Shown here: positions 2,954 through 63,437 of the stretch, piece after piece
Position numbering within the stretch: position 1 is the first letter of the stretch
How the letters are laid out: the number at the start of each line of letters is the position of its first letter
Virus record (IMG/VR): IMGVR_UViG_3300044878_000059
Span: 1 to 64,000 of that record
Source of the DNA: a virus
Lineage: Duplodnaviria > Heunggongvirae > Uroviricota > Caudoviricetes
DNA: 64,000 nucleotides
Strand: one strand, 5' to 3'
Program-made: the position numbers and the translations under genes
The notes under the pieces: generated by a model
Database searches by the model: none
Told to the model about the DNA's origin: nothing
What the model saw: only the letters and a program-made list of their open reading frames with translations

Positions 2954-2987
2954 ATATGGCATTTGGTTCAGTTTAATAAACATTCGC
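2954..2987 (-). promoter_or_regulatory. phage promoter, AATGTTTA-N19-(-10) class
   Basis: minus strand AATGTTTA, then 19 to 20 nt, then ATATAC/TATACT. Confidence 0.45.
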
Positions 2988-2990
2988 GAT

Positions 2991-3022
2991 AAAAAAAGGG
3001 CCGCAATTGGCCCTTTTGTTTT
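2991..3022. terminator. bidirectional rho-independent terminator
   Basis: AAAAAAA GGGCCGCAATTGGCCC TTTTGTTTT. Confidence 0.7.
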
Positions 3023-3293
3023 AACGCTTCGGTTTGGTGTAGTTGAATTTGTCTTTGTACTGATCGTACAACTTCGCCTTCGTCTTCACACCGGCACTGG
3101 TGGTTTCCAACTGTTCGTTGCATACCAACGTCCAACGCGGGTCGATGGTTTTACTGCCGTAACCGATACGGACAGTCTTAGGCAGAATCTGGGTAACGAT
3201 GTCGATATCAACACCGCTGCCGCTGCCGCTCCAAGTGATATAATCACCTACCACGACTTCACGACCGATTCTATCTTTCAATTCTGGTGACAT
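3021..3293 (-). CDS. small protein, MKD-GRE paralogue family (copy 1)
   Basis: N-terminus ELKDRIGREVVVGDYI resembles the three tandem paralogues at 5474..6240. Confidence 0.45.
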   Translation of the reverse strand: MSPELKDRIGREVVVGDYITWSGSGSGVDIDIVTQILPKTVRIGYGSKTIDPRWTLVCNEQLETTSAGVKTKAKLYDQYKDKFNYTKPKR

Positions 3294-3512
3294 TTAAGCC
3301 CTTTTGTTCGCTGGGTTGTTGATTTCCGCGATACGCTGGAAGTGTTTGACTGCTTTAACCTTGTCGCGCATTTCTGGTTTGGCACCGAAGAAGCACGGGT
3401 CTTTCAGTTCCATTTTGATTTTCGAATCAGACCAACCAGCCAGAGTCTTGCGACCGTGTGGGGTTTTTTGCAGTTCGGTTTTGATCAGACCAACAATAGT
3501 GTCGTAGATAGA
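3294..3512 (-). CDS. hypothetical protein (about 72 aa, internal start chosen)
   Basis: first 16 codons of the ORF overlap the upstream gene; Met17 (MSIYDTIV...) chosen as start. Confidence 0.3.
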   Translation of the reverse strand, partial: SIYDTIVGLIKTELQKTPHGRKTLAGWSDSKIKMELKDPCFFGAKPEMRDKVKAVKHFQRIAEINNPANKRA

Positions 3513-3560
3513 CATCAAACTTACCTCGAAAAGAAAATGGATTACATCAAACTGCGGCAT

Positions 3561-3890
3561 TCACTTGTGGGTGCCTGCTAAGTGACCTTTACTGGTTGCA
3601 TGCCATTGATCGCATTTTGGGCACTGATAAACCTCGTTGCACTTGTAGTTGCGTTTGAACTTCGACAACCCAAGGATCAACAAGGCATCAGCCTCAGATT
3701 TGAAAGCACGTTTGAAACAGATGAAGCTTTCTTTGACACGCCAGCCGATGACCTTTCCATCAAACCGGACTTCCTCTGCTCCAAACTTTTGATACAACGC
3801 CTTCACCTTTTCACGGCGAACGGCTGGATCACGATACTGAATGCGGGTGGCTTGAACTAGCTCCCGGCTAAAGCGGTTATTCTCAATCAC
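3561..3890 (-). CDS. hypothetical Zn-ribbon protein (109 aa)
   Basis: CPKC...C motif, basic composition. Confidence 0.4.
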   Translation of the reverse strand: MIENNRFSRELVQATRIQYRDPAVRREKVKALYQKFGAEEVRFDGKVIGWRVKESFICFKRAFKSEADALLILGLSKFKRNYKCNEVYQCPKCDQWHATSKGHLAGTHK

Positions 3891-3970
3891 GTTGCTGGCT
3901 CCGATTCTGTTCTGTTGCTTAATGACAGAATTGTAACAGCTAACTCACTCTTTCTAAACAGTTTTTCTGG

Positions 3971-4162
3971 TTATTTGAAGCAAGCCGGACGAACGGGCAT
4001 TCGCATCCAATGGGTAATCGCCGGGTCTTTGGTCAACAGTTCGATTGCTCGTTCCAGTCTACCAGTGGCCCAATACCCCAAATTCACGTTCCATAACAGA
4101 ACTTGCCCGAGTGCATCACAGTCGGCTTGCGTCGGGAGAACCCGCGCAGCGATTGCAATCAT
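3971..4162 (-). CDS. hypothetical small protein (63 aa)
   Basis: ORF only. Confidence 0.2.
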   Translation of the reverse strand: MIAIAARVLPTQADCDALGQVLLWNVNLGYWATGRLERAIELLTKDPAITHWMRMPVRPACFK

Positions 4163-4545
4163 TCGATATCATCCATGTGGTGGGCGTATTGCAGGAACCG
4201 GGCACGTTTCTTGGCCTTGAGTGCATCCCAGTCGGACGCATCAATCACACCGTTCTCAATCAATAGATCGGTCATGGCTGCGATGTCGGCAAGTTCGGAT
4301 GTCAGGTTTGTTCTGTTGGTTACCGACAAAGCGTCGGTTGGTTTGCGGGAGTCCAAGCCATGGCGAAGAATCTTGCCAATGACTTGAACGACTTCGCCGC
4401 ATTCCTCTGATGTACCGCCGATCAACTCAAGTTGCTTCGGGGTCAGGTTGTTGAAGTGTCTCAATGAAGCCAGCCTTCTTTCGATAGAATTCGACGGCAT
4501 TCGGGATCGCCAACCATTCAGTATGATGGAATCCGGCCTTGTCAT
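4159..4545 (-). CDS. MazG-like nucleotide pyrophosphohydrolase-like protein; start uncertain
   Basis: ELIGGTSEECGEVVQV...E...D acidic-helix pattern; N-terminus overlaps 4427..4894. Confidence 0.3.
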   Translation of the reverse strand: MTRPDSIILNGWRSRMPSNSIERRLASLRHFNNLTPKQLELIGGTSEECGEVVQVIGKILRHGLDSRKPTDALSVTNRTNLTSELADIAAMTDLLIENGVIDASDWDALKAKKRARFLQYAHHMDDIE

Positions 4546-4894
4546 CGACGATGATTGACATGTAGAACTTTTCAGCCACGTTACAAGTCACCGTGCCGGG
4601 TTCCATCGGATTGGAATTGAAGCCAGAAATACGAATTCCGGCATCCGCAAAGAACTTGAGGATGTGCGGCTTTTCTTCTTCCTGAACAGAACTCCAAAGG
4701 ATCAGATGGGTTTCTGGATGTTCCACCAGTCGTTGCAGGGCGGTTTTGGTGTAATCGCCAAGCCATTCGTAGGTGAATGGAACATAGGTTGACTTGAGGC
4801 ATGTACCGTGAAGATCGAGTGCCCAATACACCCGATCCCACTTACGTTCAGCAGTTTTTTGATAAGCTTGTTCAATTGCTCGGAAGATTGTCAT
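4427..4894 (-). CDS. hypothetical protein (155 aa)
   Basis: complete ORF; LDLHGT segment loosely resembles a HAD motif I. Confidence 0.35.
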   Translation of the reverse strand: MTIFRAIEQAYQKTAERKWDRVYWALDLHGTCLKSTYVPFTYEWLGDYTKTALQRLVEHPETHLILWSSVQEEEKPHILKFFADAGIRISGFNSNPMEPGTVTCNVAEKFYMSIIVDDKAGFHHTEWLAIPNAVEFYRKKAGFIETLQQPDPEAT

Positions 4895-5442: not shown

Positions 5443-5476
5443 ATTGTATCAGATTAGAACAGAAGGTTAAACATTA
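5443..5476 (-). promoter_or_regulatory. phage promoter, AATGTTTA-N19-(-10) class
   Basis: AATGTTTA N19 TACAAT. Confidence 0.5.
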
Positions 5477-9342: not shown

Positions 9343-9390
9343 TATGAGTTCAATTCTATAGCAACACACGAACAGAATAAACATTCACTC
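9343..9390 (-). promoter_or_regulatory. phage promoter with GAACAGAA half-site
   Basis: AATGTTTA N17 TATAGA; TTCTGTTCG in the spacer. Confidence 0.5.
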
Positions 9391-12265: not shown

Positions 12266-12449
12266 CTAACTTCCTTTTCATTATATGGGGCGTTACCGCC
12301 GTCGCTTTGTTACTGAACACATCATACCGCAGATTGTGTTCGTGTTAAACAGTTTTGTTTCATTTGTTTCTGTTTCAAGCTTGTTGCCGCTTGATGTGAC
12401 GAATTCTACGGAATAGAACAGAACTCGTCAACACCTATTTTCAATCTTT

Positions 12450-13470: not shown

Positions 13471-13504
13471 GTTTGTATCTTACCCTATTCTGTTTGTCCA
13501 ATAA

Positions 13505-13535
13505 ACAAAAAACCCGCCGTAGCGGGTTTTCTTTG
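13505..13535. terminator. bidirectional terminator after nadV
   Basis: AAAAAA CCCGCCGTAGCGGG TTTTCTTT. Confidence 0.65.
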
Positions 13536-16176: not shown

Positions 16177-16662
16177 TTATTCTGCCGCTCGAATCAACCA
16201 GCCTCTAAGGAAGACAGCTTTCTTCGGATCGGCTGTTACCAGACCCTTATAATACTCTGCCTGAACCGCACGATAAACATTCAATAGAACATTATTGTCC
16301 AGATCGTTGATCAGCGACAGGGTTTTAGGCCCAATCACACCGTCTACAACAACGTTTTCGTCCATTTGGTTCAATGCGGTTTGCACGAACTTAAACGCAC
16401 GTTTGCTGCCGACGTTGACAGATGTATCAAACAGTTTGGTTGCGAACGCATCGTTTGCGATTTTATCAAACGGATACGGTTGCCAGAAATCAGTCAGGTA
16501 AATCTGTTTCGCCTGAGCGATGGTCAGATTCTTGATATCGACGTTCGGGTACGAACGCTTGCTGATTCCATACTTCGTTTCGCCACCCGGATCAACAGGG
16601 TTATTGACATAACCACCTTCGTGAGCCAAGACGACTTCAATTGCTTTTTCAAAATTTGACAT
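16177..16662 (-). CDS. GH108-family lysozyme-like protein
   Basis: N-terminus EVVLAHEGGYVNNPVDPGGETKYGI is the GH108 signature. Confidence 0.6.
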   Translation of the reverse strand: MSNFEKAIEVVLAHEGGYVNNPVDPGGETKYGISKRSYPNVDIKNLTIAQAKQIYLTDFWQPYPFDKIANDAFATKLFDTSVNVGSKRAFKFVQTALNQMDENVVVDGVIGPKTLSLINDLDNNVLLNVYRAVQAEYYKGLVTADPKKAVFLRGWLIRAAE

Positions 16663-19515: not shown

Positions 19516-20641
19516 TATCCTTTTCGAACTCCTTCAAAATATAATCGTTGGCATGGCTGATCATCAATTGCTTGAGTTTCGCTTCCAGACCTTTCCCGTT
19601 TCGCAAAGACATCTGCACATGGAAACCCCAATGACCGCTGTAAAACTCCATGGCTTTAAGCGCATAGTGTTTTGTATCAAGGTGGTTCCAAGTGGTATGA
19701 AACAATTCTACCATTTGGACTGTCTTGTTATAAACATTCGAAATGGATACTTCGTAGGCATTGATTTTTGCCAACACCTGTTCATCACCGACGAACAGAG
19801 ATTTCAGGTCATCGACCTTTTCCATCAACACCAGCTCAATCAGAGCCTTGGAGTTTGATACAGAGTCTTTGTTGCGATGCAGACTCAGATACCAATCACC
19901 CTTGAGCTTGAACGGTACGCCGCTTTCAGTGATGGCAACCACGCCTTCACCACCGACCATGTTCTTTACCACTTCGATCAAATCGCCGTCGTATTCGAAC
20001 TGTTCGACCCAGTGCCCGAGCAAATCCCAGAGTTCCATGTCTTCAACGATATCGCTGCCGTACATGATCCCGGTTTCGTTGTCGATCACGGACAGACCAA
20101 CCAGACCCGGTTTCTCATACCCAACAACGATACGGTTCCATGGTGCAGTCCATTCCAGATTGACAGTGAAATCCCGTGCAGCCAGACGGCGCAAATCAGC
20201 CAGCAACGCCGGTTGAGTTTTAAGGAATTTCATTGCATCATTGGCCTGTTCGGAGCCGGTAGACCCCTTGGATTTCAGCCGCAGTTCGCCATTCGTATGG
20301 ATATACGTTGACATCAGTGAGCCGTCTTCCTTGACCATGCAGGAATACAGGTTGGTCAGATCAAGACCCATGGTCATTGGGTTCTCGTTCAGGTTGAAGA
20401 ATTTCTTCTGTGGACGGCAAACCAAATCCACATACGAACCATCACGACCTACCAGAAACATTGTTCCACGGCATTCCAATGCACTAGGCAACAGGAAGTC
20501 GGTATAGGACGCCAACCGATAGTTGAAAATCCGATACATTGTTGTTTGCTCGTCCGATGGGAAGTCCTTGAAAAAGAACGCATCGGATTCGCAGAGTGCC
20601 AACAGGTTTTGATACAAAACTTCTGGGGCCACGTTGTTCAT
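19502..20641 (-). CDS. rnlA: RNA ligase 1 (T4 gp63 RnlA-like)
   Basis: colinear with T4 RnlA (YRIFNYRLASYTDFLLPSALECRG, KEDGSL lysine motif). Confidence 0.8.
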   Translation of the reverse strand: MNNVAPEVLYQNLLALCESDAFFFKDFPSDEQTTMYRIFNYRLASYTDFLLPSALECRGTMFLVGRDGSYVDLVCRPQKKFFNLNENPMTMGLDLTNLYSCMVKEDGSLMSTYIHTNGELRLKSKGSTGSEQANDAMKFLKTQPALLADLRRLAARDFTVNLEWTAPWNRIVVGYEKPGLVGLSVIDNETGIMYGSDIVEDMELWDLLGHWVEQFEYDGDLIEVVKNMVGGEGVVAITESGVPFKLKGDWYLSLHRNKDSVSNSKALIELVLMEKVDDLKSLFVGDEQVLAKINAYEVSISNVYNKTVQMVELFHTTWNHLDTKHYALKAMEFYSGHWGFHVQMSLRNGKGLEAKLKQLMISHANDYILKEFEKDSAEN

Positions 20642-22053: not shown

Positions 22054-22341
22054 TTAGAAGGGTAACAAAACCGCCACTGGTTCATGCTGAATTTCAGAAA
22101 TGAAATCTCTGATCATTTTTTGATCAGCTCGATCCATCATCTGACGATATGACATGTACGTGTACGGTTTCCCATAGCTGCTACGGAAGCCATATTCGTT
22201 CAGGACTTCCACCAGCACTTTGATATTTTCAATGATGTGTTCAAGGCCAAGCTTGATCAGAACCTGTTGAAAAACAACGATTTCTTTGATGCGCGATTCG
22301 GTTTGAGCTTTCTTACCGACGATGATTTCTTTGCCCGACAT
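22054..22341 (-). CDS. hypothetical protein (95 aa)
   Basis: ORF preceded by the TTGTGAGAAT motif. Confidence 0.45.
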   Translation of the reverse strand: MSGKEIIVGKKAQTESRIKEIVVFQQVLIKLGLEHIIENIKVLVEVLNEYGFRSSYGKPYTYMSYRQMMDRADQKMIRDFISEIQHEPVAVLLPF

Positions 22342-25522: not shown

Positions 25523-25556
25523 ACTATATCACAAGTCCCTTCCCGGTTAAACATTA
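25523..25556 (-). promoter_or_regulatory. phage promoter upstream of topoisomerase gene 39
   Basis: AATGTTTA N19 TATAGT. Confidence 0.55.
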
Positions 25557-27795: not shown

Positions 27796-27822
27796 CTAAT
27801 CACCAATCAAAAATGTATCATA

Positions 27823-28209
27823 TCACAGTTTGATGTAATCATTAAACTTTGGAATGATATATTCCTCAGTCACGAAATTCATCGAGTCGATCCACGTAGT
27901 TGTATCAAACCCTTCGAACAGAGCTTGGTCGTCGGTATCCTCTTTGTACAGAGCATACGCAGCAACGAGCTTGCCGATCTTGGATTTTCCACCGGGGATG
28001 ACTTCTATCAAACGCTTGAGATTTGCTGCAAGCCTGTGAAAGTAAGTCCACGCAGTTGTTTCTTTCGGTGTCACAGCTTCTTTCAACTGTTTACCGGTTC
28101 TATCAATTATGCCGAGCTTGTAAGCATCCCACTGCGACCATTCAAGGTACAGCAAGGCAGCCATGCGAGCGGCATAAATGTTGTCTATCAGTTTGGGCAT
28201 ATAACTCAT
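27823..28209 (-). CDS. hypothetical protein (128 aa)
   Basis: ORF. Confidence 0.4.
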   Translation of the reverse strand: MSYMPKLIDNIYAARMAALLYLEWSQWDAYKLGIIDRTGKQLKEAVTPKETTAWTYFHRLAANLKRLIEVIPGGKSKIGKLVAAYALYKEDTDDQALFEGFDTTTWIDSMNFVTEEYIIPKFNDYIKL

Positions 28210-29185: not shown

Positions 29186-29220
29186 ATCTTACGACAGGTT
29201 CTGTTCGAAATAAACATTGG
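29186..29220 (-). promoter_or_regulatory. phage promoter with GAACAGAAC operator-like half-site
   Basis: AATGTTTA TTTCGAACAGAACCTGTCG TAAGAT. Confidence 0.5.
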
Positions 29221-34645: not shown

Positions 34646-34679
34646 AATTGTAAATGAAAAGGGTCGTGAACTAAACATT
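34646..34679 (-). promoter_or_regulatory. gene 43 promoter inside the regA terminator
   Basis: AATGTTTA N19 TACAAT, about 25 nt upstream of the putative TTG start. Confidence 0.5.
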
Positions 34680-34696: not shown

Positions 34697-35071
34697 TTAC
34701 TTTTGCCCGATGTTGTACTTGTAGACTTTCTGCCATCCGCCGCTATTGGCTTCGGCAAACGAAATGATCCTGAACAGGTTGCGTCTTTCGGACACAGCCT
34801 GACCCGGACTAACGATGGTGCAAAGGTTCCAGTCTTGCAGAAGCTTGGCAATGTCGTTGCGTCTTTCGGTATCTTCATCAGTCATTTTTGCTTCGCGCCC
34901 ATCAAGCTCTAACAGCTCTTTGAAATGCACGATGTAAACTTTGCCACGCTTGTTCAAAATGTGGCAAGACTGGTAAATGGTTTTGGTCTTGTTATTAGCA
35001 ATACCAACTCTTGTCAGCGTTTCCCGAATTTTTGGAAAACTATCTTGGCTGGTTAATTCAATTTCAATCAT
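34697..35071 (-). CDS. regA: translational repressor RegA
   Basis: 124 aa, clear match to T4 RegA (LTRVGIANNK, YQSCHIL). Confidence 0.85.
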   Translation of the reverse strand: MIEIELTSQDSFPKIRETLTRVGIANNKTKTIYQSCHILNKRGKVYIVHFKELLELDGREAKMTDEDTERRNDIAKLLQDWNLCTIVSPGQAVSERRNLFRIISFAEANSGGWQKVYKYNIGQK

Positions 35072-37150: not shown

Positions 37151-37465
37151 TTAGTTACTCACAATAAGGCCGGTTTCAGACAGAACGTCGTGTGCAACGC
37201 CCGCAAGTACCATGTCCAGAGGTTGTTGGTTTTTGGATTGACGCAGTGGGCCAAAACCTTTCAGTTGAACAACCACAAGGTCTTTGTTCAGGTCACGCAG
37301 GGTTTCAAGGTAACGATCTTTGATTTTGGCATCGATCGATTGATAAAATTCGGTGCGAGCCGGTTGCATCATTGCCTTCATTTTGGCGGCATCGGCTGCG
37401 CTGATCAGGGGAACCCAAGCATTACGCACGTTTACATCGTGTTCACACATTTCGCTACGATTCAT
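37151..37465 (-). CDS. hypothetical protein (positional equivalent of T4 rpbA)
   Basis: between 45 and 46. Confidence 0.35.
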   Translation of the reverse strand: MNRSEMCEHDVNVRNAWVPLISAADAAKMKAMMQPARTEFYQSIDAKIKDRYLETLRDLNKDLVVVQLKGFGPLRQSKNQQPLDMVLAGVAHDVLSETGLIVSN

Positions 37466-37503: not shown

Positions 37504-37537
37504 AATATACCAGCTAAACCCCTGTTTCTAAACATTA
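37504..37537 (-). promoter_or_regulatory. phage promoter
   Basis: AATGTTTA N19 TATATT. Confidence 0.5.
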
Positions 37538-39244: not shown

Positions 39245-40278
39245 TGTGATTCTGCCTCGCGGTATAAGTCCATCATAAAGCGTTTGATTTTGGTTCGATC
39301 TTCCTCGGTTTCTTCCAGAGTATCGATATACTGATCAATGACTTCGGCTGTAGTCAGAAGGTTGTTCAGTGTTGGAGCCGACGACGTTCCGCCGTTTGAA
39401 TCCAATACGTCTTTGACCTTGACTTCACGCGCAATCGTAATCAGCTTGTCGATCAATTTATCAAACTTCTTGGTATCACCACGCGACTTGACTTGAATGT
39501 TCAAGTACATGTCTTTGTAGCGTTCCAAGTTCTTTTCATCAAATGTTGAATGATCGAAGTAGATACGCGAAAATCGCGGCATGTTGTTATTATGAAACTC
39601 GAAAGTTCCATCGTCGGTGTCGTACACCCAAACCCCACGTTCATCATCCGCATCACCGAAGGTCAATTGGTATGGAGTACCAACGTACAGGATGTGGTTC
39701 GCTTTGGAGATTGTATGGAAGTGACCCGACCAAACTTGGCTGTAGTTCGCCAAGAAGTGTGCATCTTCACCCTGAGAAGCCATGCCCCGGTAATACTGGA
39801 ACCCAGCCAACTCGAAGTGACCAACCGCAATGTTGTTGCTACTGTTCGCGATGAAATCCAGAACCTGTTTACGGTTGTCTCGACAAATCCAAGGGATCAT
39901 GTCGATTTTGATTCCATCAACTTCCAGCACACCCGGTTCGTTGTAGATCGTGAAGTTTTCGTACCCTGCCAGCAACTCATTACAAGAGTTCGGGAAGATC
40001 GATTCTTTCAAGTGCATGTCGTGGTTACCGACCAGCACATGCCATTCTTGACCCTTGGTCTTGGGGATCAGTTTTTCCCGTACAAGTTCCATAGTGTCAT
40101 GTCGAATAGCTTTCCGGGCATCAAAGAAGTCACCGGTTTGAATAACGTGTTTGATTCCGAGTTTGAGCATCAACGGGAAAATGAATTCATCAAAGACCCG
40201 TATTTGATATTCGGCGGTTTCTCGGTCGCCACTACGATGACCCAAATGTTGGTCACCGATCACCATCAGTTTTGCCAT
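39241..40278 (-). CDS. 47: recombination endonuclease subunit (SbcD/Mre11-like)
   Basis: VIGDQHLG phosphoesterase motifs. Confidence 0.85.
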   Translation of the reverse strand: MAKLMVIGDQHLGHRSGDRETAEYQIRVFDEFIFPLMLKLGIKHVIQTGDFFDARKAIRHDTMELVREKLIPKTKGQEWHVLVGNHDMHLKESIFPNSCNELLAGYENFTIYNEPGVLEVDGIKIDMIPWICRDNRKQVLDFIANSSNNIAVGHFELAGFQYYRGMASQGEDAHFLANYSQVWSGHFHTISKANHILYVGTPYQLTFGDADDERGVWVYDTDDGTFEFHNNNMPRFSRIYFDHSTFDEKNLERYKDMYLNIQVKSRGDTKKFDKLIDKLITIAREVKVKDVLDSNGGTSSAPTLNNLLTTAEVIDQYIDTLEETEEDRTKIKRFMMDLYREAESH

Positions 40279-40775
40279 TAATCAATAAATTCCGCTAACC
40301 CACCTTCCTCGATTGATTCGAGTGGAACAATTTTCTTACCGGGAGCTTCTTTCAGTTTCTCCCCGATGTCTTTGAAGAACGAGTAGTCAATCTGAATTGG
40401 ATTGCCATCGTCATCAAATTCTTCAAGGTCTGGAATAGCTTGCAGGTAGTATTTGTATTTGATGCGGGTTTGTTTGTTTTCTTTCTTCAAACGATTGACA
40501 CAAGCTCGCTCACAGATACGGGTAATGTATGCGTGTACGTTCTTGTATTGGGTGTTGTACTTGTGCAGGTATCGAACGCAAACTTCAATTGCATCCAACG
40601 CCATTTCATCACGCCATGTGTAGTTCTGGAAGTTCCAGCGTTTCACAAGGTTGTTCGCAATCAGAATTACGGAACGGCATGTATAATCGCCCATCTTTGC
40701 GACGGGGTTTGTTTCACGGCGTTTCTGCCAGTCTACAATATCCTCATACAGTAAATTGTTATCAACGTACATCAT
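40278..40775 (-). CDS. 55: late-transcription sigma factor
   Basis: similarity to T4 gp55 (NVHAYITRICERACVNRLKKE). Confidence 0.7.
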   Translation of the reverse strand: MMYVDNNLLYEDIVDWQKRRETNPVAKMGDYTCRSVILIANNLVKRWNFQNYTWRDEMALDAIEVCVRYLHKYNTQYKNVHAYITRICERACVNRLKKENKQTRIKYKYYLQAIPDLEEFDDDGNPIQIDYSFFKDIGEKLKEAPGKKIVPLESIEEGGLAEFID

Positions 40776-40796: not shown

Positions 40797-40830
40797 ATCA
40801 TACCAGCGTTTGTATCAAATATAAACATTC
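40797..40830 (-). promoter_or_regulatory. phage promoter upstream of gene 55
   Basis: AATGTTTA N19 TATGAT. Confidence 0.55.
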
Positions 40831-43630: not shown

Positions 43631-43666
43631 AATATACCACCAGTTCTGTTCCGAATAAACATTCAG
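43631..43666 (-). promoter_or_regulatory. phage promoter upstream of the first tRNA cluster
   Basis: AATGTTTA TTCGGAACAGAACTGGTGG TATATT; an 11-bp inverted repeat follows. Confidence 0.5.
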
Positions 43667-44278: not shown

Positions 44279-44554
44279 TTAATAGGGTTTGAGATTATCA
44301 AACCCCATCTGTTTATCGACCATCTTCCCAGTCGGGAATATTTCATCCTGACTGGTTTTGACGGGGTACGTTCGGTTGTTGCCGACTCTGAAAAATACAC
44401 GTTGGCATTCCAGTTCAGATACCTTGACCGCTTCACCACCCTTATTTACAACTGTTCGGACGATGGCAACGAAAGGCATCTGTTGGAAGAACGGATTCGA
44501 TTGATCAAATGTTGACGACATCAATTTTTCTCCAAGTGTTGGTTCTGATTGCAC
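44279..44554 (-). CDS. hypothetical protein (91 aa)
   Basis: ORF, overlaps the next gene by 50 nt. Confidence 0.35.
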   Translation of the reverse strand: MQSEPTLGEKLMSSTFDQSNPFFQQMPFVAIVRTVVNKGGEAVKVSELECQRVFFRVGNNRTYPVKTSQDEIFPTGKMVDKQMGFDNLKPY

Positions 44555-47500
44555 CAGTAGCGTTCAGATACGGTCTGTTATCCAATGGAACATCCAGATT
44601 GATTTCAGACAGCCAAGGAATCCAACCCAATTGCAAGGTTTTGTTGAAAACCTCAGTTCGGATTGCATCACCGCTTGAGTTGTTTGGTGCATAGTTCAAG
44701 CACACAACATCAAACACATGTTCCTTGCGCAGTTCTTTCATCATTTCTGCAATGTTGTTGTTCCAATCGATTGCACCCGGATCGGTAATCAACTGGTAAG
44801 TTCCGGTATCGAAGTTGTAATCAGAGAACACAGATTCAGCCATTGAGTATGTAATACTCTTGACAATCTGGTCGTAGATACTGAAACCACGGTTCGCACA
44901 AAACATCTTGTCCGAATACTGAGTTTTCAGATCGTTGATAATTCCAGCCATACCGGCCTGATAATCAGCTCTGTTATACACGTCTACGGTGTCTACGGTG
45001 TCCATGAAGACCCCATCAGACTCCAACCCCATCTTGGTATAGGCTAATGAAACTGCTACGCCTGCAAGAGCTTGTGGAACGTCTACGTCGCTCGGATCGG
45101 TGGTGAATACAATCGCACCAGTCTTGAAATCGATTGTGTAGTGTTTGTTGATCGTGTAAACGAACCCGGTTGATGTATGACTAACCGTAATTGGCTCGCC
45201 GGAATCAATCGGATAGAAACTTGCACGAACACCAATCACACTACCGGTTGTAGTCGTATGCGAAGCCAACAGAACCCCGGTTTCAGTTTTCGGACTACCA
45301 ACACCAAATACCAAAGGCATGTAATGCTGTTGCAGTCGTTCCATCCAGCTACCGGCACCACGTTTCACCGCATCAATGTAATACGATCCCCAAATACCGT
45401 TGGCATCTGGTTTGTTCGAACCTACAGAGAAATCCTGACCCCAAGAGTTTTCAGCTTGTTGGTACTGTGGACATTTGGTGTTTGTCGGTGTGTATTTCGG
45501 ACATGCACTGTTTGTACAGGCCGATGTTGCGTTTCGTTGCCAGTTGTTTGCACTGGTGTATCCACCCGCACATGCACCGCCAGCCGATTGAGCGATATAA
45601 CCATCACGACTATCTTTCGTACATGCCGTACCGCAACGACCAGTTCCCGCTAGGTAATGGGCGTTTGACAATGCACAGGTCTTTTGACCAAACAGTCTTT
45701 GGTTATCGTTCTGACATTCGTTGACTTCACCGAAGTTGTAACCCTGCGACATGTAATAGGACGCATAACCACCCGGCCCCTGACCGTTACCGATTTGTGG
45801 GCTTTTGGTGCTTGAGTAATCCCAGATGTTCGCCGGTTCACCATCTTCTTCACCAAACGAAATGTAGTTGATTACTTTGATACCAAGGTCTTGAAGTTCC
45901 TTTACCTGCTTGCGGTTCAGTGCCAGTGGATCGGTAATCACAATGTCGTACTGTTTGAACTTCTCAAGGAAGCCAGCCGCGTAGCAACAAATGAACGTCG
46001 GGAATCGATATTCAACTTCGACTTGAGTTCCACCACGGTTATCATGGGGACTGGTCTTGTCTAGATTGAATGCGTTCTTATCTGGTGCATCAAATACAAC
46101 TTTACCATTCTGCAATCGAACATTTTTCACTGGGAACGGTGGAACCTGTTTCAGATCGTACTTAACCTGCAAAACCTCATCAACTTGCGTATAGTTCGCA
46201 GCCTCTGTGTAGTTCAGTGTGGTGAACAACGCACCAGAGTTAGCCACGATACGCACGATAACGCTGTTGGAACCAGCACCCAGACCGGTAGCCGTCATCA
46301 GAGAGAACTTCTGAATCAAGGTTGGATCGGATGTCGATACAGTCAGTGTTGTAACAAAGTTACCGAATGCGGCCTGACGGTTTGTGTTCGTCGCAGATGC
46401 GTTAGCACTCATTGTGATTGCAGTACCGTTGATTGCGGTAATGGTGGTTGGAACCGTGGCAAAACCGTTCATGACGATTTCCATACCGACCGTCAAGCCA
46501 GCATTCGATGGAACCGTTACTATCGGGCTACCGCTTGTAATCTTACAGCCGTTCAAGCTGATACCGTTTTTCATTACACGATATGCAGACAACCCGGAAT
46601 CTCGCCATACACGCATACTGAACGAATCACCGTAGTTGGTGAACTGCATCCATGAATACTTGTTAGCAGAACCCCAGCTTGTTTCAGGGAACGTTGCATC
46701 AGCCGCTTGTTCGTACCAAGACCCGTAATAGGTAATTGCACTTGAGTTGTAAGGTGCAGCAATGCTGTTACTGATTGGAACTGTACCGGCAGCATCTTTG
46801 ATGTAAGAACGTAGGTTCAAATCATAAGTCTTCAAGCCAGCAACTTCATTACCAATCAACTTCGGCAATAGGTTTAGTTCGAACGTACTGTTAGGCGACA
46901 AGTTACCAACAGATACAGTACCGATTGCAGTACCATTCGGATACGTTAGACCAGCATCTACGGTAATAGTTGTGTTGACAATACTATCAGCACCGATGTT
47001 CTTTAGTGTGAACTTCTTACCTTGCGGCATATCGGCGGATGGTGCAACCCAACCATTCGAACTTACAGACTTGTTGTTATACGAAAACGCTTTGATTCGA
47101 TGCATAATGAAGAATGCAGTCGATGTGTTATCGATACAGAACAGTTCTACGGTGTGAACACCATCAGACAAACCATCGGCAATTACGATATCGCGAATTT
47201 CCTGACCCAACGATGCCGGAACAATAGTCGTTGCGTTACATGTGATGACATCCACGGCAGTAGTCAACCCAGCGATCAGGGAAGGCTTTACACCGTCGAT
47301 TAGCACATAAGCCTTACCCATGCCGGGGTCAAGACCAATACGCACCGCTACGGCACTCCCAGACACGCTTACAGAGGCTTTACCTTTGATAGTGAATGCT
47401 CGGCTCTCCATAGTTCCAGTTGGATAACCCAAGTCGCCTTGGTCACGAACCCAATCCCCACCAGAATAGTTGGTAGAGTTGTAGGTGAATGAATTACTGA

Positions 47501-47612
47501 GAGTCAGTTGATCCAAGGAATATACGGTTGCCCGTACATCCTTGAAATCGTGACCTTCAATAACATCATCGGTAATTGCATGCAAATATGATTTTGTTAC
47601 GTTGAAGTTCAT
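44505..47612 (-). CDS. large tail fibre/spike-like protein with C-terminal TIM-barrel glycoside hydrolase (GH114-like) domain
   Basis: 1035 aa, beta-rich N-terminal two thirds, then a segment (FICCYAAGFLEKFKQYDIVITDP...VINYISFGEED) that reads like a GH114/endo-alpha-1,4-polygalactosaminidase-like hydrolase core, followed by a C-terminal Cys-rich region. Confidence 0.5.
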   Translation of the reverse strand: MNFNVTKSYLHAITDDVIEGHDFKDVRATVYSLDQLTLSNSFTYNSTNYSGGDWVRDQGDLGYPTGTMESRAFTIKGKASVSVSGSAVAVRIGLDPGMGKAYVLIDGVKPSLIAGLTTAVDVITCNATTIVPASLGQEIRDIVIADGLSDGVHTVELFCIDNTSTAFFIMHRIKAFSYNNKSVSSNGWVAPSADMPQGKKFTLKNIGADSIVNTTITVDAGLTYPNGTAIGTVSVGNLSPNSTFELNLLPKLIGNEVAGLKTYDLNLRSYIKDAAGTVPISNSIAAPYNSSAITYYGSWYEQAADATFPETSWGSANKYSWMQFTNYGDSFSMRVWRDSGLSAYRVMKNGISLNGCKITSGSPIVTVPSNAGLTVGMEIVMNGFATVPTTITAINGTAITMSANASATNTNRQAAFGNFVTTLTVSTSDPTLIQKFSLMTATGLGAGSNSVIVRIVANSGALFTTLNYTEAANYTQVDEVLQVKYDLKQVPPFPVKNVRLQNGKVVFDAPDKNAFNLDKTSPHDNRGGTQVEVEYRFPTFICCYAAGFLEKFKQYDIVITDPLALNRKQVKELQDLGIKVINYISFGEEDGEPANIWDYSSTKSPQIGNGQGPGGYASYYMSQGYNFGEVNECQNDNQRLFGQKTCALSNAHYLAGTGRCGTACTKDSRDGYIAQSAGGACAGGYTSANNWQRNATSACTNSACPKYTPTNTKCPQYQQAENSWGQDFSVGSNKPDANGIWGSYYIDAVKRGAGSWMERLQQHYMPLVFGVGSPKTETGVLLASHTTTTGSVIGVRASFYPIDSGEPITVSHTSTGFVYTINKHYTIDFKTGAIVFTTDPSDVDVPQALAGVAVSLAYTKMGLESDGVFMDTVDTVDVYNRADYQAGMAGIINDLKTQYSDKMFCANRGFSIYDQIVKSITYSMAESVFSDYNFDTGTYQLITDPGAIDWNNNIAEMMKELRKEHVFDVVCLNYAPNNSSGDAIRTEVFNKTLQLGWIPWLSEINLDVPLDNRPYLNATGAIRTNTWRKIDVVNI

Positions 47613-47613
47613 G

Positions 47614-49074
47614 TTATGCCAACTTTAAGTAAGTGAACTTGGAAGTTGCAGTTAATGCAGATGCTCCATTGTTCGTAATTTTCATAGACAGTGCTGGACT
47701 TCCGGCTTGTACATAGTACGAGAATCTGTCATTGAAGTTACCGGTAATCAACTGTGCTTTGTACAGAAGTGTCCCTGTTGCATCAATGCTGTTGTAGAAT
47801 TCAATGGTATAAGAACCAGCGGAAACCACATCAACTTCCAGTACCAAGTTGTTCGCTACCAATGCACCATTCAAGTTAACAATCGAAGACGCACCAACCG
47901 CCAAAGCAGTAGTTGTGTTAGTTGCAACTATAGGGGCTTGCATTGTACCGGTTGGGCCTGTGGCCCCGGCAGCACCAACTAGACTTGCAAGGAACACCGA
48001 AATAGAACCAGTGTTTCCGGCATCTAGCCAGATTTGATATGCAGACTTACCGTCAGCACCGTTACTACCATTTGTTCCGTTTGTACCAGCGGTTCCGGGT
48101 GTACCAATCAAACTGGTTAGGAACGCAGACAAAGAACCAGAGTTCCCGGCATCCAACCACAGTTGATAGGCGGATTTACCGTCTGCACCGTTGCTACCAT
48201 TGGTTCCATTAGTACCAGCCGTACCGGCAGCACCAATCAAACTTGCTAGGAACTGTTCTACGGTGCCAATATGACCCGCCGCAATCCATAGTTCGTATGC
48301 CGATTTACCGTCTGCGCCGTTACTACCATTGGTTCCATTAGTACCAGCCGTACCGGCAGCACCAATCAAACTGGTCAAAAATTGACCAACGGTTCCAGAG
48401 TTACCAGCATCTAGCCACAACTGGTATGCGGATTTACCGTCAGTACCATTTGTACCGGCTGGCCCCGGCCCGCCATCGAAGCCCGGATCACCTTTCAAAC
48501 CACGCGCACCGATCAGGCTTGCTAGGAACTGGTTGACAGTCCCGACGTTTCCTGCATCGATCCAGATTTGATAGGCCGATTTACCGGTTGCACCGATCAA
48601 TGATAAAATGAAATCCTGAATGGTTCCGGTGTGTCCAGCATCTAGCCAGATGTCATACGCGGATTTCCCGGTAGCACCTTTCAATGAGGCTAGGAACGCA
48701 GTTAGATCGCCCGAGTTACCGGCTTCAACCCATAGTTGATAGGCCGATTTACCGTTGGCACCGGCAGCACCGTTCGTACCATTTGTTCCGTTAGTCCCGT
48801 TGCGACCAATTAGACTGGTCAGGAAGTCGGTAATAGTTCCGAGGTTCCCGGCTTCAATCCAGATTTGATATGCGGACTTGCCGTCAATACCGGCAGCACC
48901 TTTCAAAGACGCCAAGTAATCGAATACAGTTCCGGTATGTCCAGCTTCAATCCAAACCTGATAGGCGGATTTCCCATCTGGCCCGCGTGGGCCGGGAATT
49001 CCACCATCATTTGGATATGTAATTGTGTTGCCGGATTCATCAACGAATACACCCGGCGAGCTTTGTTGTGTCAT
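47614..49074 (-). CDS. collagen-like repeat fibre protein
   Basis: about ten repeats of GKSAYQ[IL]W[IL]DAGN.G...FL.SLIG separated by G-X-Y (GTNGTNGSNGADG) triplets. Confidence 0.6.
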   Translation of the reverse strand: MTQQSSPGVFVDESGNTITYPNDGGIPGPRGPDGKSAYQVWIEAGHTGTVFDYLASLKGAAGIDGKSAYQIWIEAGNLGTITDFLTSLIGRNGTNGTNGTNGAAGANGKSAYQLWVEAGNSGDLTAFLASLKGATGKSAYDIWLDAGHTGTIQDFILSLIGATGKSAYQIWIDAGNVGTVNQFLASLIGARGLKGDPGFDGGPGPAGTNGTDGKSAYQLWLDAGNSGTVGQFLTSLIGAAGTAGTNGTNGSNGADGKSAYELWIAAGHIGTVEQFLASLIGAAGTAGTNGTNGSNGADGKSAYQLWLDAGNSGSLSAFLTSLIGTPGTAGTNGTNGSNGADGKSAYQIWLDAGNTGSISVFLASLVGAAGATGPTGTMQAPIVATNTTTALAVGASSIVNLNGALVANNLVLEVDVVSAGSYTIEFYNSIDATGTLLYKAQLITGNFNDRFSYYVQAGSPALSMKITNNGASALTATSKFTYLKLA

Positions 49075-51750: not shown

Positions 51751-51777
51751 CAAATACTCACAATAATTAAAGATGTT

Positions 51778-52074: not shown

Positions 52075-52097
52075 TCATATAATTCTCACAAGATGTT

Positions 52098-52778: not shown

Positions 52779-52818
52779 TTATGTGTCTATTGTATATCAA
52801 ACAGAACTCATAATAAAC
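52779..52818 (-). promoter_or_regulatory. phage promoter inside the tRNA array
   Basis: AATGTTTA N17 TATACA with GTTCTGTT in the spacer. Confidence 0.4.
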
Positions 52819-52824
52819 ATTCGA

Positions 52825-54624: not shown

Positions 54625-54989
54625 TATAAGTTACTCACAAGTTATTGGATTTGAATCACCGGGTCAGTCACGCAACACCCTTACGGGCACCCAATCTTTC
54701 AGGGCTTTACCGGCTAGCTGATTTTAGGGCTTTCGCCTTCGATTCAAATTAGTTTTGAACACCGGTACTGATTTCCGGCTTTGTGTGATGCGACAGAAAA
54801 CCCACACATCTACAGGGCTTCTACTGTCTTCACCCTTGCGGCATATCAGTCTATGCATTGTTCAAATTGGATTTGACGATTTCGGCTAGTTAGCGAAGGG
54901 CGTGTCTTTTCCTACTAGCAAAGACCCTGTACTTTCAACAGAGTAGTTCCCGAACGGGTTCCCCCTACAACCTTTTCCATCGTCAAATT

Positions 54990-55071: not shown

Positions 55072-55509
55072 TTAACCGCGTTTCTCAACCAGTGACTTCG
55101 CAAAATTACATGGCGAACACATGGTTGTTGTGTTACTTAAATGATCTTTGCCACCAGCCGAACGGGCCAGCGTGTGGTCATGAGTAAACAGCACTTCATC
55201 ACCGTTTGTATCAATGCCCCAGAGGTTCAAATGATATGGATGACCATCGTTCATTTGGACTGGACGTTCAACCGCGTAGAACTGAGCTTCAAGGCCACAA
55301 GCCGAGCATTTGGTTCCGTGCGTGTAGAAGGTCTTCAACCGCATGCCATCACTGAACAGTTTTACCTGTCTACCGAACAATTCGGTCTTTGGTGGCTTTT
55401 CGCGACTGCGAGGATCAAGGGTTGCTGTGTTCTTGGACTGTGCTTCGCGAATTTCTTCGATGGACACTGTACCAATCCGAGCATAAACTTGACGCTTCAT
55501 TTGTATCAA
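55072..55509 (-). CDS. HNH homing endonuclease
   Basis: HLNLWGIDTNGDEVLFTHDH...N...H HNH motif; sits inside the tRNA array. Confidence 0.7.
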   Translation of the reverse strand: MIQMKRQVYARIGTVSIEEIREAQSKNTATLDPRSREKPPKTELFGRQVKLFSDGMRLKTFYTHGTKCSACGLEAQFYAVERPVQMNDGHPYHLNLWGIDTNGDEVLFTHDHTLARSAGGKDHLSNTTTMCSPCNFAKSLVEKRG

Positions 55510-55531: not shown

Positions 55532-55578
55532 ATCATAGCACAACCGACCTACAGGATAAACATTGAAACAGAATTTGG
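55532..55578 (-). promoter_or_regulatory. phage promoter upstream of the HNH endonuclease
   Basis: ATTCTGTTTC AATGTTTA N19 TATGAT. Confidence 0.5.
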
Positions 55579-59599: not shown

Positions 59600-59640
59600 T
59601 ATTGTATCATACAATCATGACCGGATAAACATTGAAACTT
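59600..59640 (-). promoter_or_regulatory. phage promoter inside the tRNA array
   Basis: AATGTTTA N19 TACAAT; the -10 lies in a 15-nt palindrome ATTGTATCATACAAT. Confidence 0.45.
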
Positions 59641-59782: not shown

Positions 59783-59842
59783 ATTTGATGTAATCAATAT
59801 ATCATACCGATCACACATTTTAAACATTCAAATCAAATTATT

Positions 59843-60700: not shown

Positions 60701-60740
60701 ACTATATCATTGTTCCGTTCGATTCTAAACATTGGAACAA
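60701..60740 (-). promoter_or_regulatory. phage promoter with flanking dyad
   Basis: TTGTTCC AATGTTTA GAATCGAACGGAACAATGA TATAGT. Confidence 0.45.
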
Positions 60741-61675: not shown

Positions 61676-61689
61676 AGGCCCACCCGTAA

Positions 61690-63093
61690 TTATTGCCAGT
61701 CGTAACGTGGAACTTGCAGGGTTTCCAACATCATGGACAGAGGGGTTACCTCTGGGACTTCGGTTTGAGCCAAAATCGACTTCATGATTGCTGGGCTGAA
61801 ACCCGTTACCATTGCGGTTCCGCCGACGCCGAAGCTGACAGGCAGGTTACCGAACGCAGAGTTCATGTTCCAGAAGATGATGTCAGGACGTTTGTAGCCA
61901 GCGGCTTCGTACATCCGATCAATCATCGTAAACGCAGAATCGTTGTTGAAACGACCATCCACTTGGTTGAACTGCATATCCGACCAAAGAATGATCTTGG
62001 TTGGCATGTCAGCTACCGGAACCTTGTGTTTCACCGCCGCTTGCAGGATCAGTTCAAACGACTTTTGCAGGTTGGTAGAACCACCCCACGGTGCGGATTG
62101 TGTCTTGTAAACACGATCACGCAGAGTCTTACAATCCGACAGATCAACCCAAGTAGGGTTGTTGTGGAACGTAATGAATTGATCTTTGAAGATGCCCTTG
62201 GAACGCTCTGCAACGTACATACCCAGCGATACCGCCACGTCCATACAGGTCAGACCTTTGGAGGCGTAGTAGCTGCTCATAGAGCCGGACACGTCCACGA
62301 TGCCAAGCAGGTTCTCTTTCGAGTCTGCGAGGTAATCCGGCAGTGCCTTCCACTGTGCATCAGCAACACCTTCTACGCCGCCGTTCAAACTGCGAAGAAC
62401 GTCGTAAGGGAAGATCGCACCGGCATTGACTTTGGTTTTACCCGTAGCCAGACCGTCGATCCACTCTTGGTACGCTTCTGGAGCATTACGCTTGAACGCA
62501 CGTTGGTAGTTCTTCGAAGCAACCGATGGGAGCTTGCTGAAATCGATTTGATTCCATTGCTGCGCGCACATCTTCTGTTCCACGGTTTTGGACAGCGGAA
62601 CGATCAGCTTGCGGTAACCACGCGGGGTCAACTCAAACTGGTTCATGAAGAACCGGGAATACTTCTTGCCTTCACGCGGCATCCACTTGGCACACAGACC
62701 GTTACCGTCAAGCAGAGCTTGTGCAACAATCTCAGTGATGATGAAGTCCAGCGTTTCGGACAGACCGATCAGTTGCCACAGGTCATCCCAACGACCCACT
62801 TCTGGGATTTTGGCGACGATACGACCGGCAACGTTGATGTCGGTTTCACGAACAACTTGGTTCATGAGAGAACGGAACGTTTGACGTTCGCCAGCACCAC
62901 CGCGAATATCGCGAACCCACAACAGTTGACGAACTGCCAAATCGGCATCTTCGTTGTACGCTTTGCGGAACTGAGCCGACAGGTCAAGCCCACGGGCCGA
63001 ACCGATCTTGGCGAACAGATCGACGTTTGCATTGAAGCTGGATTTCTGCGCTGCCATACCATTGGTGGTACGGGTCAAATTGGTTTTGCTCAT
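61690..63093 (-). CDS. vWA-domain protein with N-terminal helical domain (Ro60/TROVE-like architecture)
   Basis: MIDAS motif VDVSGSMSS in the C-terminal half; 250-aa helical N-terminal domain. Confidence 0.5.
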   Translation of the reverse strand: MSKTNLTRTTNGMAAQKSSFNANVDLFAKIGSARGLDLSAQFRKAYNEDADLAVRQLLWVRDIRGGAGERQTFRSLMNQVVRETDINVAGRIVAKIPEVGRWDDLWQLIGLSETLDFIITEIVAQALLDGNGLCAKWMPREGKKYSRFFMNQFELTPRGYRKLIVPLSKTVEQKMCAQQWNQIDFSKLPSVASKNYQRAFKRNAPEAYQEWIDGLATGKTKVNAGAIFPYDVLRSLNGGVEGVADAQWKALPDYLADSKENLLGIVDVSGSMSSYYASKGLTCMDVAVSLGMYVAERSKGIFKDQFITFHNNPTWVDLSDCKTLRDRVYKTQSAPWGGSTNLQKSFELILQAAVKHKVPVADMPTKIILWSDMQFNQVDGRFNNDSAFTMIDRMYEAAGYKRPDIIFWNMNSAFGNLPVSFGVGGTAMVTGFSPAIMKSILAQTEVPEVTPLSMMLETLQVPRYDWQ

Positions 63094-63125
63094 TATATTC
63101 TCTCACAAGTTCTTTTGATATGTGC

Positions 63126-63169
63126 ATATCCTAGCACGGTTCTGTTCGATGGTAAACATTGGAACAGAA
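63126..63169 (-). promoter_or_regulatory. phage promoter with GTTCTGTTC / GAACAGAAC dyad, upstream of the vWA gene
   Basis: ATTCTGTTCC AATGTTTA CCATCGAACAGAACCGTGC TAGGAT. Confidence 0.5.
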
Positions 63170-63195
63170 TTATTTGCACAAATGTTCAGGCGTAA

Positions 63196-63222
63196 AAAAG
63201 CCCCGGTAAACCGAGGCTTTAG
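63196..63222. terminator. terminator after tRNA-Trp
   Basis: AAAAAAGCCCCGGTAAACCGAGGCTTT. Confidence 0.5.
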
Positions 63223-63226
63223 AATG

Positions 63227-63301
63227 TGGCAGGCTACTACGGACTCGAACCGCAAATGAGGGATTTGGAATCCCTAGTGTTGCCAATTACACCAGTAACC
63301 C
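63227..63301 (-). tRNA. tRNA-Trp (CCA)
   Basis: arm AGGGA/TTCCAAA/TCCCT; T TGCGG/TTCGAGT/CCGTA. Confidence 0.65.
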
Positions 63302-63403
63302 ATAAACCGGCCCATTGGATTGCATCAAAGGTAAGTGAACATACCGGGCCGGGGTCGAAGCTGGGGGAACCTTTCGGTAACATTTCCTGCTTCTGTACTT
63401 CTA

Positions 63404-63437
63404 TTTATACACTATGATCTTGAAAATCTAAACATTT
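63404..63437 (-). promoter_or_regulatory. phage promoter upstream of tRNA-Trp
   Basis: AATGTTTA GATTTTCAAGATCATAGTG TATAAATA. Confidence 0.5.

Follow-up and report, generated by a model that had tools for sequence, protein, structure and literature searches.

Probable T4-type early promoters with a conserved upstream box in the replication region of an undescribed T4-like phage

Introduction

In phage T4 and five T4-like phages that have been analysed, the early promoters share a -35 region that resembles GTTTAC and spans -36 to -31, together with an A-rich region at -40 to -44; the presence of such promoters 5' of transfer RNA (tRNA) genes and novel open reading frames (ORFs) is typical of these phages (Nolan, 2006; PMC1524935). 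The T4 early promoters have been described as 'uber' UP/-35/TGn/-10 promoters with extra conserved positions, while the MotA box of the middle promoters, (a/t)(a/t)(a/t)TGCTTtA, is centred at -30 and lies 12 +/- 1 bp from the -10 element (Hinton, 2010; PMC2988021). Here, we analyse a class of promoter-like sites built on the box AATGTTTA in positions 1 to 64,000 of the IMG/VR virus record IMGVR_UViG_3300044878_000059 (Caudoviricetes); this whole 64-kb stretch is referred to below as the window. An earlier note on the window had described the box, followed at a fixed distance by a sigma-70-like -10 hexamer, and had suggested that it could represent either a middle-promoter analogue or an extended -35 variant used by the host sigma-70.

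The phages KVP40, NT1, Aeh1 and 65 are known to possess AsiA without MotA, and whether KVP40 and Aeh1 encode a functional MotA analogue has been left open in the literature (PMC2988021); RB49 and RB43 are without MotA-type promoters (PMC1524935). Judging from its gene content, the window covers the part of the genome with the early and replication genes of an undescribed T4-like phage, which is absent from the phage collection searched. When 20 kb of the window were compared by megablast with this collection, the Pseudomonas phages Astolliot and Milchi were the best matches, with about 74% nucleotide identity that was confined to replication genes. We conclude that the sites in the window are very probably T4-type early promoters, strong multi-element promoters at which host sigma-70 RNA polymerase, in its unmodified form, would initiate as soon as infection begins. 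A literature search for AATGTTTA, TGTTTAC or Astolliot promoters returned nothing relevant beyond T4 reviews.

Results

The box is coupled to a sigma-70-type -10 hexamer at a fixed distance

The predicted genes of the window and all 30 of its tRNA genes lie on the minus strand. The box AATGTTTA was found 19 times, always on this coding strand, when 2.9 occurrences were expected over both strands, and none of 100 shuffles yielded more than eight. The repeated box is thus real and more prominent than the earlier note had it: 15 sites had been counted between positions 2954 and 63437, and one of the 19 exact boxes (1983-1976) falls outside this range. Box and hexamer are separated by 19 nt at 17 of the 19 sites and by 20 nt at the other two (boxes starting at 19738 and 2984); the fixed 19-nt spacing is confirmed, while the 17-nt gap that had been ascribed to two cases exists at no site. 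With the sites aligned at the hexamer, the pattern TAnnnT at -12 to -7 is evident from a T at 19, an A at 18 and a final T at 18 of the 19 sites, and the previously named hexamers TACAAT, TATGAT, TATAGT, TATATT and TATAAA are all present. The extended -10 position (-15/-14) is occupied by TG at 12 of the 19 sites (background TG frequency, 0.078; P = 1e-9). A search of the window for the composite TGTTTA-N19-TAnnnT returned 18 minus-strand matches and no plus-strand match, with 0.2 expected from resampling. These data support the proposal that the sites form one promoter class with a fixed architecture.

The placement of the boxes relative to genes is likewise non-random. Genes cover 82% of the window, leaving 18% as non-genic sequence, and 17 of the 19 boxes are intergenic or touch only the last codons or the stop codon of the upstream gene (binomial P = 4e-11). 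The motif is therefore not equally frequent in coding sequence; an equal frequency would, according to the earlier note, have spoken against a promoter class. The other two boxes are located deep inside genes, those at 19738 (RNA ligase 1) and 16281 (GH108 lysozyme-like protein), and both are followed by a correctly spaced -10 hexamer. Where an intergenic site is followed by a coding gene, the -10 hexamer ends 23-55 nt before the start codon. The 11 nt directly upstream of the boxes have an A/T content of 71%, compared to 55% in all non-genic sequence; this enrichment is modest and does not form an A-tract consensus. A comparison of 7-mers in non-coding and coding sequence placed GTTTATT, TGTTTAT and ATGTTTA among the top words not derived from tRNAs. 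At least four variant sites keep the core and the spacing of the class with one- or two-base changes in the box (ACTGTTTA, TTTGTTTA and AAAGTTTA).

Genes of the window were identified through Pfam (the whole predicted proteome, searched in concatenated chunks), by comparison with T4 and, for the primase only, by synteny with Astolliot. The units that lie behind boxes are gp43; rpbA-45-44-62-regA; 55-47-46; 39-52-asiA; an HNH gene; and a DUF2828 gene. Boxes are also found before several small ORFs and, in six cases, before a single tRNA or a group of tRNAs. The earlier note had named these downstream genes correctly (genes 43, 39 and 55, the HNH gene, tRNAs and small ORFs), and its 'vWA gene' is the one encoding the DUF2828/DUF7788 protein.

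The box occupies the register of the T4 early -35 region

If the hexamer is placed at -12 to -7, the box extends from -39 to -32, and its GTTTA segment (-36 to -32) is invariant at all 19 sites. This is the register of the -35 region of T4 early promoters, and the suggestion of an extended -35 variant for host sigma-70 was therefore essentially right. We searched the T4 genome for the corresponding composite, GTTTAC-N18-TAnnnT, and found 13 sites in 1-50 kb and six in 150-169 kb, all of them on the coding strand, where chance would give 0.23 and 0.15, respectively. Site positions were tabulated for 1-50 kb, and most sites there lie 25-44 nt before the starts of srd, modB, mrh.2, sp, imm.1, 55.6, motB, motB.2, rIIA.1, pin and a gene starting at 20553, which is the same geometry relative to start codons as in the window. 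In this comparison, the 18 minus-strand sites of the window, with none on the plus strand, stand against 0.55 expected. Since many of the T4 sites read TGTTTAC, the common core of the two sets is TGTTTA.

The likeness to the early promoters of T4, and to their predicted counterparts in RB69, RB49, RB43, 44RR, Aeh1 and KVP40, thus comprises GTTTA at -36 to -32 and a gap of 18 nt between the six-base -35 region and TAnnnT. It extends to the frequent TGn and a conservation that reaches beyond the classical hexamers, perhaps to the modestly A/T-enriched upstream sequence, and also to the distribution of the sites, which are found on the coding strand only, 25-55 nt before early genes, tRNA genes and small novel ORFs, with none in late-gene blocks. 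The two sets differ in that T4 has (g/a)(t/c)TGTTTAC, whereas the invariant part in the window is shifted upstream to AATGTTTA and there is no conserved C at -31. Moreover, the host of the window phage is probably Pseudomonas or a relative and not an enteric bacterium, and the sites are predicted from sequence.

A canonical sigma-70 promoter (TTGACA, 17 nt, TATAAT) shares with the sites the -10 element, TGn and the 17-bp frame. At those boxes that it flagged, a generic sigma-70 scanner read TTTAnn followed after 17 nt by a -10 hexamer with TG, and the 3' half of the box therefore stands in the canonical -35 frame, where TTTAnn matches TTGACA at T, T and A. The sites differ from the canonical -35 hexamer by a T for G at the third position, by free positions 5 and 6, and by four invariant bases upstream. 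A generic TTGACA/TATAAT scan of the window gave no enrichment (18 found; 24.7 in shuffles).

The T4 late promoter, which is recognised through gp55, has TATAAATA at -13 to -6, no -35 element, and a location 5' of late genes. The class does not fit this description, and the window contains a single TATAAATA.

AsiA is encoded in the window and MotA is undetectable

Because the box stands in the early register and is 7 bp too far upstream for a MotA box, the T4 early promoter is its nearest counterpart, and the proposed analogy to the MotA box of middle promoters finds no support. We nevertheless weighed a middle-type class, in which AATGTTTA would be bound by a phage activator, a functional MotA analogue. 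Activator and AsiA homologue would act jointly on a remodelled sigma-70, so that sigma would be appropriated through a box at another position. Several features resemble the MotA/AsiA middle promoters of T4: a sigma-70-type -10 element, often with TGn, a conserved T/G-rich upstream box ending in TTtA, and a genome that encodes AsiA. The asiA homologue of the window (22341..22054, minus strand; 95 amino acids) matches PF09010 with E = 7e-15 and 55 bits (cut-off, 25 bits), and a phmmer search of the window with T4 AsiA gave E = 5e-5. In addition, members of the class stand before genes which in T4 are under middle promoters (43, 39 and the 45 region), AATG at -39 to -36 is invariant and -31/-30 are unconserved, unlike in a plain sigma-70 -35 hexamer, and the MotA analogue left open for KVP40 and Aeh1 (PMC2988021) leaves room for such an activator.

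The other half of the MotA/AsiA pair, for which the earlier note had proposed a search, was not detected. In T4, motA is located between gene 52 and asiA, whereas asiA in the window directly follows the gp52-type topoisomerase subunit gene with no gene in between. The predicted proteome of the window has no Pfam match to MotA (MotA_activ, MotCF), and the best E-values from phmmer searches with T4 MotA (--max, six-frame) were 5 for the window and 1.4 for the complete Astolliot sequence, in both of which AsiA was found; for the window phage itself, the MotA search covers the 64-kb window. A tblastn search with T4 MotA against all phage records returned 1143 records, and Pseudomonas was not among the ten organism names listed. 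MotA-type spacing is not enriched either: TGCTT-N13-15-TAnnnT occurs once on the minus and five times on the plus strand of the window (1.3 expected), compared to 20 occurrences on the T4 coding strand, where 6.3 were expected and the pattern is enriched.

These findings make a middle-type class unlikely. The box is found at -39 to -32 with the core TGTTTA and not TGCTT, its distance of 19 nt from the -10 element is not 12 +/- 1, and it coincides with the early -35 register of T4, whose activator-independent early promoters show the same extended TGTTTAC conservation. The same class precedes tRNAs and small ORFs, typical of early units, and asiA itself lies behind such a promoter: the nearest upstream one is that with its box at 25555, and no other recognisable promoter was found upstream. 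With respect to AsiA and MotA, the window phage resembles KVP40, NT1, Aeh1 and phage 65 as well as RB49 and RB43, in which a MotA-box class is missing, motA is undetectable and early-type promoters serve replication genes; it shares AsiA with the first four. It differs from KVP40 and its like in belonging to another lineage, together with Astolliot- and Milchi-like Pseudomonas phages and an unclassified relative.

Related phages share the class

The IMG/VR contig IMGVR_UViG_3300042013_000056 (182.9 kb; L007 below) is closely related to the window phage, with gp45 92% identical and about 82% identity at the DNA level. At all three orthologous positions covered, before gp55, rpbA and gp43, it carries an exact AATGTTTA. 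Box and spacer are nearly invariant between L007 and the window, in contrast to the diverged coding sequence on their flanks. At two of the three sites, the -10 hexamer differs, with TAGAAT in place of TATGAT and TATAGT in place of TATATT, and it keeps both its location and the form TAnnnT.

The complete genome of the more distant Astolliot contains 28 copies of TGTTTA-N19-TAnnnT, 26 of them on the minus and two on the plus strand, when about 1.8 occurrences were expected. All 26 minus-strand sites fall into 19-82 kb or 129-152 kb, where early genes run on the minus strand, and none into the structural block at 82-129 kb. The consensus of these sites is aAGTGTTTAAc...TGnTAnaaT, and those before rpbA, gp55 and the topoisomerase gene match the window in position. 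The flanking bases have drifted, from AATGTTTA in the window to AGTGTTTAAC in Astolliot and TGTTTAC in T4. By sequence comparison, the class is shared throughout the clade; its TGTTTA core is fixed, and its flanks are particular to each lineage.

In some Pseudomonas phages, single-strand nicks are marked by conserved, strand-specific motifs (bioRxiv 10.1101/2024.10.22.619576), and we therefore considered whether the box might be a strand-specific signal at the DNA level, for nicking, modification or methylation, replication or packaging, that is unrelated to transcription initiation. The nick motif in question, [AT]ACT[AG]TGAC, is another sequence from an unrelated phage, and that study ties no nick or modification motif to Milchi (bioRxiv 10.1101/2024.10.22.619576). 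A DNA-level signal would leave unexplained why the box is coupled to TAnnnT with TGn at a fixed 19 nt, why start codons follow at 23-55 nt, why the sites are confined to early regions and why the -10 variants in relatives keep to the consensus; we consider it extremely improbable.

Terminator-like hairpins overlap some of the sites

At several sites, the box or the -10 hexamer lies inside a stable hairpin followed by a U-run, which raises the possibility that the box acts at the RNA level, within a hairpin for termination or processing that separates two transcription units. The hairpin at 34700-34635 (minus strand; -19.6 kcal/mol, z = -4.9) holds the -35 box of the gp43 promoter in its loop, and that at 25560-25500 (minus strand; -18.3 kcal/mol, z = -2.8) contains the -10 hexamer of the topoisomerase promoter. 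A further terminator-like hairpin with a U-run overlaps the promoter at 37470-37550 (minus strand). Such hairpins are found at a minority of sites, and what is conserved are the loop and box bases and the -10 hexamer, not the stems; the equivalent hairpin of Astolliot (its sequence L001, 41700-41760, minus strand) has a different stem sequence. Since the stems vary between sites and phages and the box is fixed, we read the hairpins as terminators of the upstream units that overlap the next promoter, and an RNA-level role of the box as very improbable. This arrangement suggests that read-through from an upstream unit stops exactly where the next promoter starts.

Individual promoter sites

The sites described in the following are all located on the minus strand, and each range runs over box, gap and hexamer; unless stated otherwise, the box is exact, the gap is 19 nt, and distances are to the downstream gene. 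Among the sites that precede replication and transcription genes, the one at 40797..40829 (TGg-TATGAT) lies 24 nt before the gene for the gp55 late-sigma homologue (40772..40278), which is followed by gp47 and gp46, and is kept in L007 and Astolliot. The box of the site at 37504..37536 (TGg-TATATT) overlies the stop codon of gp46; this site lies 38 nt before rpbA (37465..37151), followed by gp45, gp44, gp62 and regA, and is likewise kept in both relatives. The site at 34647..34679 (TACAAT), kept in L007, has its box in the loop of the terminator-like hairpin after regA and precedes gp43 by 38 nt, counted to a probable TTG start at 34608. The longest ORF for this DNA polymerase begins with an ATG at 34878 and would overlap both regA and the promoter; the TTG start is favoured because of the position of the promoter, an AGGAAA ribosome-binding site and conservation in L007. 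At 25523..25555 (TGa-TATAGT), the box overlies the upstream stop codon and the -10 hexamer is part of the terminator-like hairpin; this site lies 24 nt before the gene for the gp39-type topoisomerase large subunit, with gp52 and asiA further downstream, and is kept in Astolliot (41753).

Six sites are associated with tRNA genes. The first, at 63404..63436, consists of the box at 63436-63429 and TATAAA at 63409-63404, with tRNA-Trp 102 nt downstream. Its -10 region reads TATAAATA (63404-63411), the T4 late-promoter consensus, and it is this site that holds the sole TATAAATA of the window; it may be a dual early/late promoter. The sites at 60701..60733 (TGa-TATAGT) and 52789..52821 (TACAAT) occupy the tRNA-Phe/tRNA-Gly and the tRNA-Ala/tRNA-Leu(TAG) interval, respectively. 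Those at 59796..59828 (TGa-TATATT) and 43631..43663 (TGg-TATATT) lie 13 nt before tRNA-Arg(TCT) and 49 nt before tRNA-His, and that at 59601..59633 (TGa-TACAAT) precedes a 54-amino-acid ORF, tRNA-Asp and tRNA-Lys. Several tRNAs have their own promoters and are not part of one long operon. Several of the tRNA genes between 41.6 and 63.3 kb (minus strand) encode the 3' CCA and are directly followed by an A/T-rich stretch and the next box; this succession of tRNA 3' end and UP-like tract accounts for the 'CCAAAT...' found upstream of many boxes.

Other protein-coding genes are preceded by the site at 63128..63160 (TGc-TAGGAT), 34 nt before the gene for the 467-amino-acid DUF2828/DUF7788 protein (63093..61690), and by that at 55532..55564 (TGc-TATGAT), 31 nt before the gene for the 142-amino-acid HNH-type protein (55500..55072). 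Small ORFs follow the sites at 29186..29218 (TAAGAT; 40 nt before a 97-amino-acid ORF), 9353..9385 (TAGAAT; 23 nt before a 104-amino-acid ORF), 5443..5475 (TGa-TACAAT; box over the upstream stop codon, 28 nt before a 92-amino-acid ORF), 2951..2984 (20-nt gap, TATACT; box preceded by a terminator-like hairpin and T-run, 24 nt before a 68-amino-acid ORF) and 1951..1983 (TGt-TTTAAT; 30 nt before a 138-amino-acid ORF). The two sites inside genes are candidate internal promoters: the one at 19705..19738 (20-nt gap, TGg-TAGAAT) in the RNA ligase 1 gene lies 189 nt before the start of the polynucleotide kinase gene, and the one at 16249..16281 (TATTAT) in the GH108/PG_binding_3 gene lies 143 nt before an NMN adenylyltransferase/NUDIX gene.

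Variant boxes were found at four further sites. ACTGTTTA occurs at 12321..12353 (TATGAT; 55 nt before an SPFH/Band-7 gene) and at 3930..3962 (TGt-TACAAT; 39 nt before a 109-amino-acid ORF). At 13477..13509, a terminator-like hairpin and T-run are followed by TTTGTTTA and TAAGAT before a metallophosphoesterase gene, and this site is like those of the Astolliot type. AAAGTTTA stands at 27817..27850, with a 20-nt gap and TGa-TATGAT, before the primase gene.

At four promoters, the spacer contains the element GAACAGAAC 12-13 nt after the box start (63147, 60720 with one mismatch, 43651 and 29206, minus strand), that is, in the sites with boxes starting at 63160, 60733, 43663 and 29218. It is sometimes accompanied by its complement upstream, and the two then form an inverted repeat that flanks the box. 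On the minus strand, the exact GAACAGAAC 9-mer is present five times and the complement GTTCTGTTC six times, coding sequence included. We rejected GAACAGAAC as a general promoter element, since it is limited to this subfamily of four promoters and also found in coding sequence; it could be the mark of a promoter subfamily or an operator.

Gene content and further observations

The replication and recombination genes of the window encode gp43, gp45, gp44, gp62, gp46, gp47, UvsX, gp41 and the primase, and its regulatory genes RegA, RpbA, gp55 (38% identical to T4 gp55; E = 4e-31) and AsiA. Further genes encode gp39- and gp52-type topoisomerase subunits, RNA ligases 1 and 2, polynucleotide kinase, enzymes of NAD salvage, the HNH protein, a UvrD-like helicase and the DUF2828/DUF7788 protein.

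The 30 phage tRNA genes cluster at 41.6-63.3 kb. One of them (43276-43351, minus strand) has the anticodon CTA and was labelled 'tRNA-Pyl' by ARAGORN; it looks like a suppressor tRNA, because the amber codon is read by a CTA anticodon. Within the same region, a 137-amino-acid protein (43761-44174, minus strand) matches the anti-CBASS nuclease Acb1 (PF23474, E = 9e-27), a homologue of which has been mentioned for Milchi (bioRxiv 10.1101/2024.10.22.619576). The interval 44505-49074 (minus strand), also part of the early region, encodes a 486-amino-acid protein with about ten tandem 30-residue repeats (GKSAYQ[IL]W[LI][DE]AGN.G....FL.SL.G), joined by collagen-like G-T-N-G linkers, and an adjoining 1035-amino-acid protein without a Pfam match. 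Both look like fibre or adhesin proteins, for which a location in the early region is unusual.

A second short word, TTGTGAG, often as part of CTTGTGAGAAT, is found seven times, always on the coding strand and each time 7-22 nt upstream of a start codon (22348-22354, 37158-37164, 37475-37481, 51757-51763, 52085-52091, 54634-54640 and 63102-63108, minus strand); the starts of asiA, rpbA and gp45 are among those that it precedes. Its total is not above chance (11 expected), while its placement is striking. GTGA pairs with the 3' end of 16S rRNA, and TTGTGAG could be a Shine-Dalgarno variant or a translational operator. The window encodes RegA (35071..34697, minus strand), whose targets in T4 include rpbA and gene 45.

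Discussion

If the sites are T4-type early promoters, the contribution of each of their elements can be predicted. TGTTTA would serve as the -35 region, with TTTA filling the first four positions of the sigma-70 -35 hexamer at the canonical 17-bp spacing, and AATG would be an upstream extension specific to the lineage. TGn at -15/-14, present at about two thirds of the sites, would act as an extended -10 element, and the moderately A/T-rich stretch just upstream of the box would be UP-element-like. In the predicted complex, region 4 of sigma would contact TGTTTA, region 3 TGn and region 2 TAnnnT, while the C-terminal domains of the alpha subunits may contact the A/T-rich upstream DNA. Transcription would start about 7 nt after the hexamer, which predicts 5' leaders of about 17-48 nt.

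Promoters of this kind would drive the tRNAs, many small ORFs of unassigned function, and genes for replication and transcription. Since asiA and gene 55 are both downstream of promoters of the class, we infer that the class is active before either protein exists, which fits early timing. Furthermore, since a MotA-type class was not recognised, those replication genes that are under middle promoters in T4 would be driven by this class as well. AsiA may in this phage inhibit host promoters as well as those phage promoters that depend on the -35 element.

Several points weigh against this assignment. Early timing, the start sites and the form of the polymerase are all deduced from the DNA. The -35 hexamers of T4 and E. 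coli have a C at -31 and an A at -30, neither of which is conserved in the window. The invariant AATG of the window, at -39 to -36, falls beyond the classical region-4.2 hexamer, so that sigma-70 recognition alone does not account for it; the UP-like A/T enrichment is only modest. Our -35/-10 comparison was made with T4 and E. coli, and the relatives infect Pseudomonas. Finally, a position weight matrix built from the window sites gave seven matches on T4, compared to a mean of 4.5 in Markov resamples, and we dropped it as a statistic. Matches of at least 14 bits included sites before known early genes, e.g., motA; the count does not exceed that of the resamples because T4 is AT-rich, and the T4 comparison therefore rests on the strict composite patterns with their controls.

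The invariant AATG also allows for a different role of this segment. It might be a docking site for an unrecognised factor, encoded by the phage or delivered with the virion, in an AsiA-positive and MotA-negative lineage. Such a factor would keep the promoters active, or re-activate them, after AsiA has removed region 4 of sigma-70 from the -35 DNA, and conservation at -31/-30 would have been lost. We regard this as quite unlikely; if true, the docking factor would represent a second, independently evolved sigma appropriation and would answer the long-standing question of the role of AsiA without MotA.

Taken as T4-type early promoters, the sites are an expected feature of a T4-like phage and not a new type of control element, and they do not overturn current understanding. 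What is mildly unusual is the upstream shift of the invariant box and the presence of AsiA in the absence of MotA. The window phage adds one more lineage to those that keep AsiA without MotA or MotA-box promoters, in which the role of AsiA is still unsettled. For the early half of this undescribed T4-like phage, the 19 exact and four variant sites in 64 kb, together with the units behind them, provide a transcription map, and the sites are probably compact, strong and portable promoters. The design of the T4 early promoter has been retained, with its register unchanged, in a distant lineage of which the known relatives are phages of Pseudomonas.

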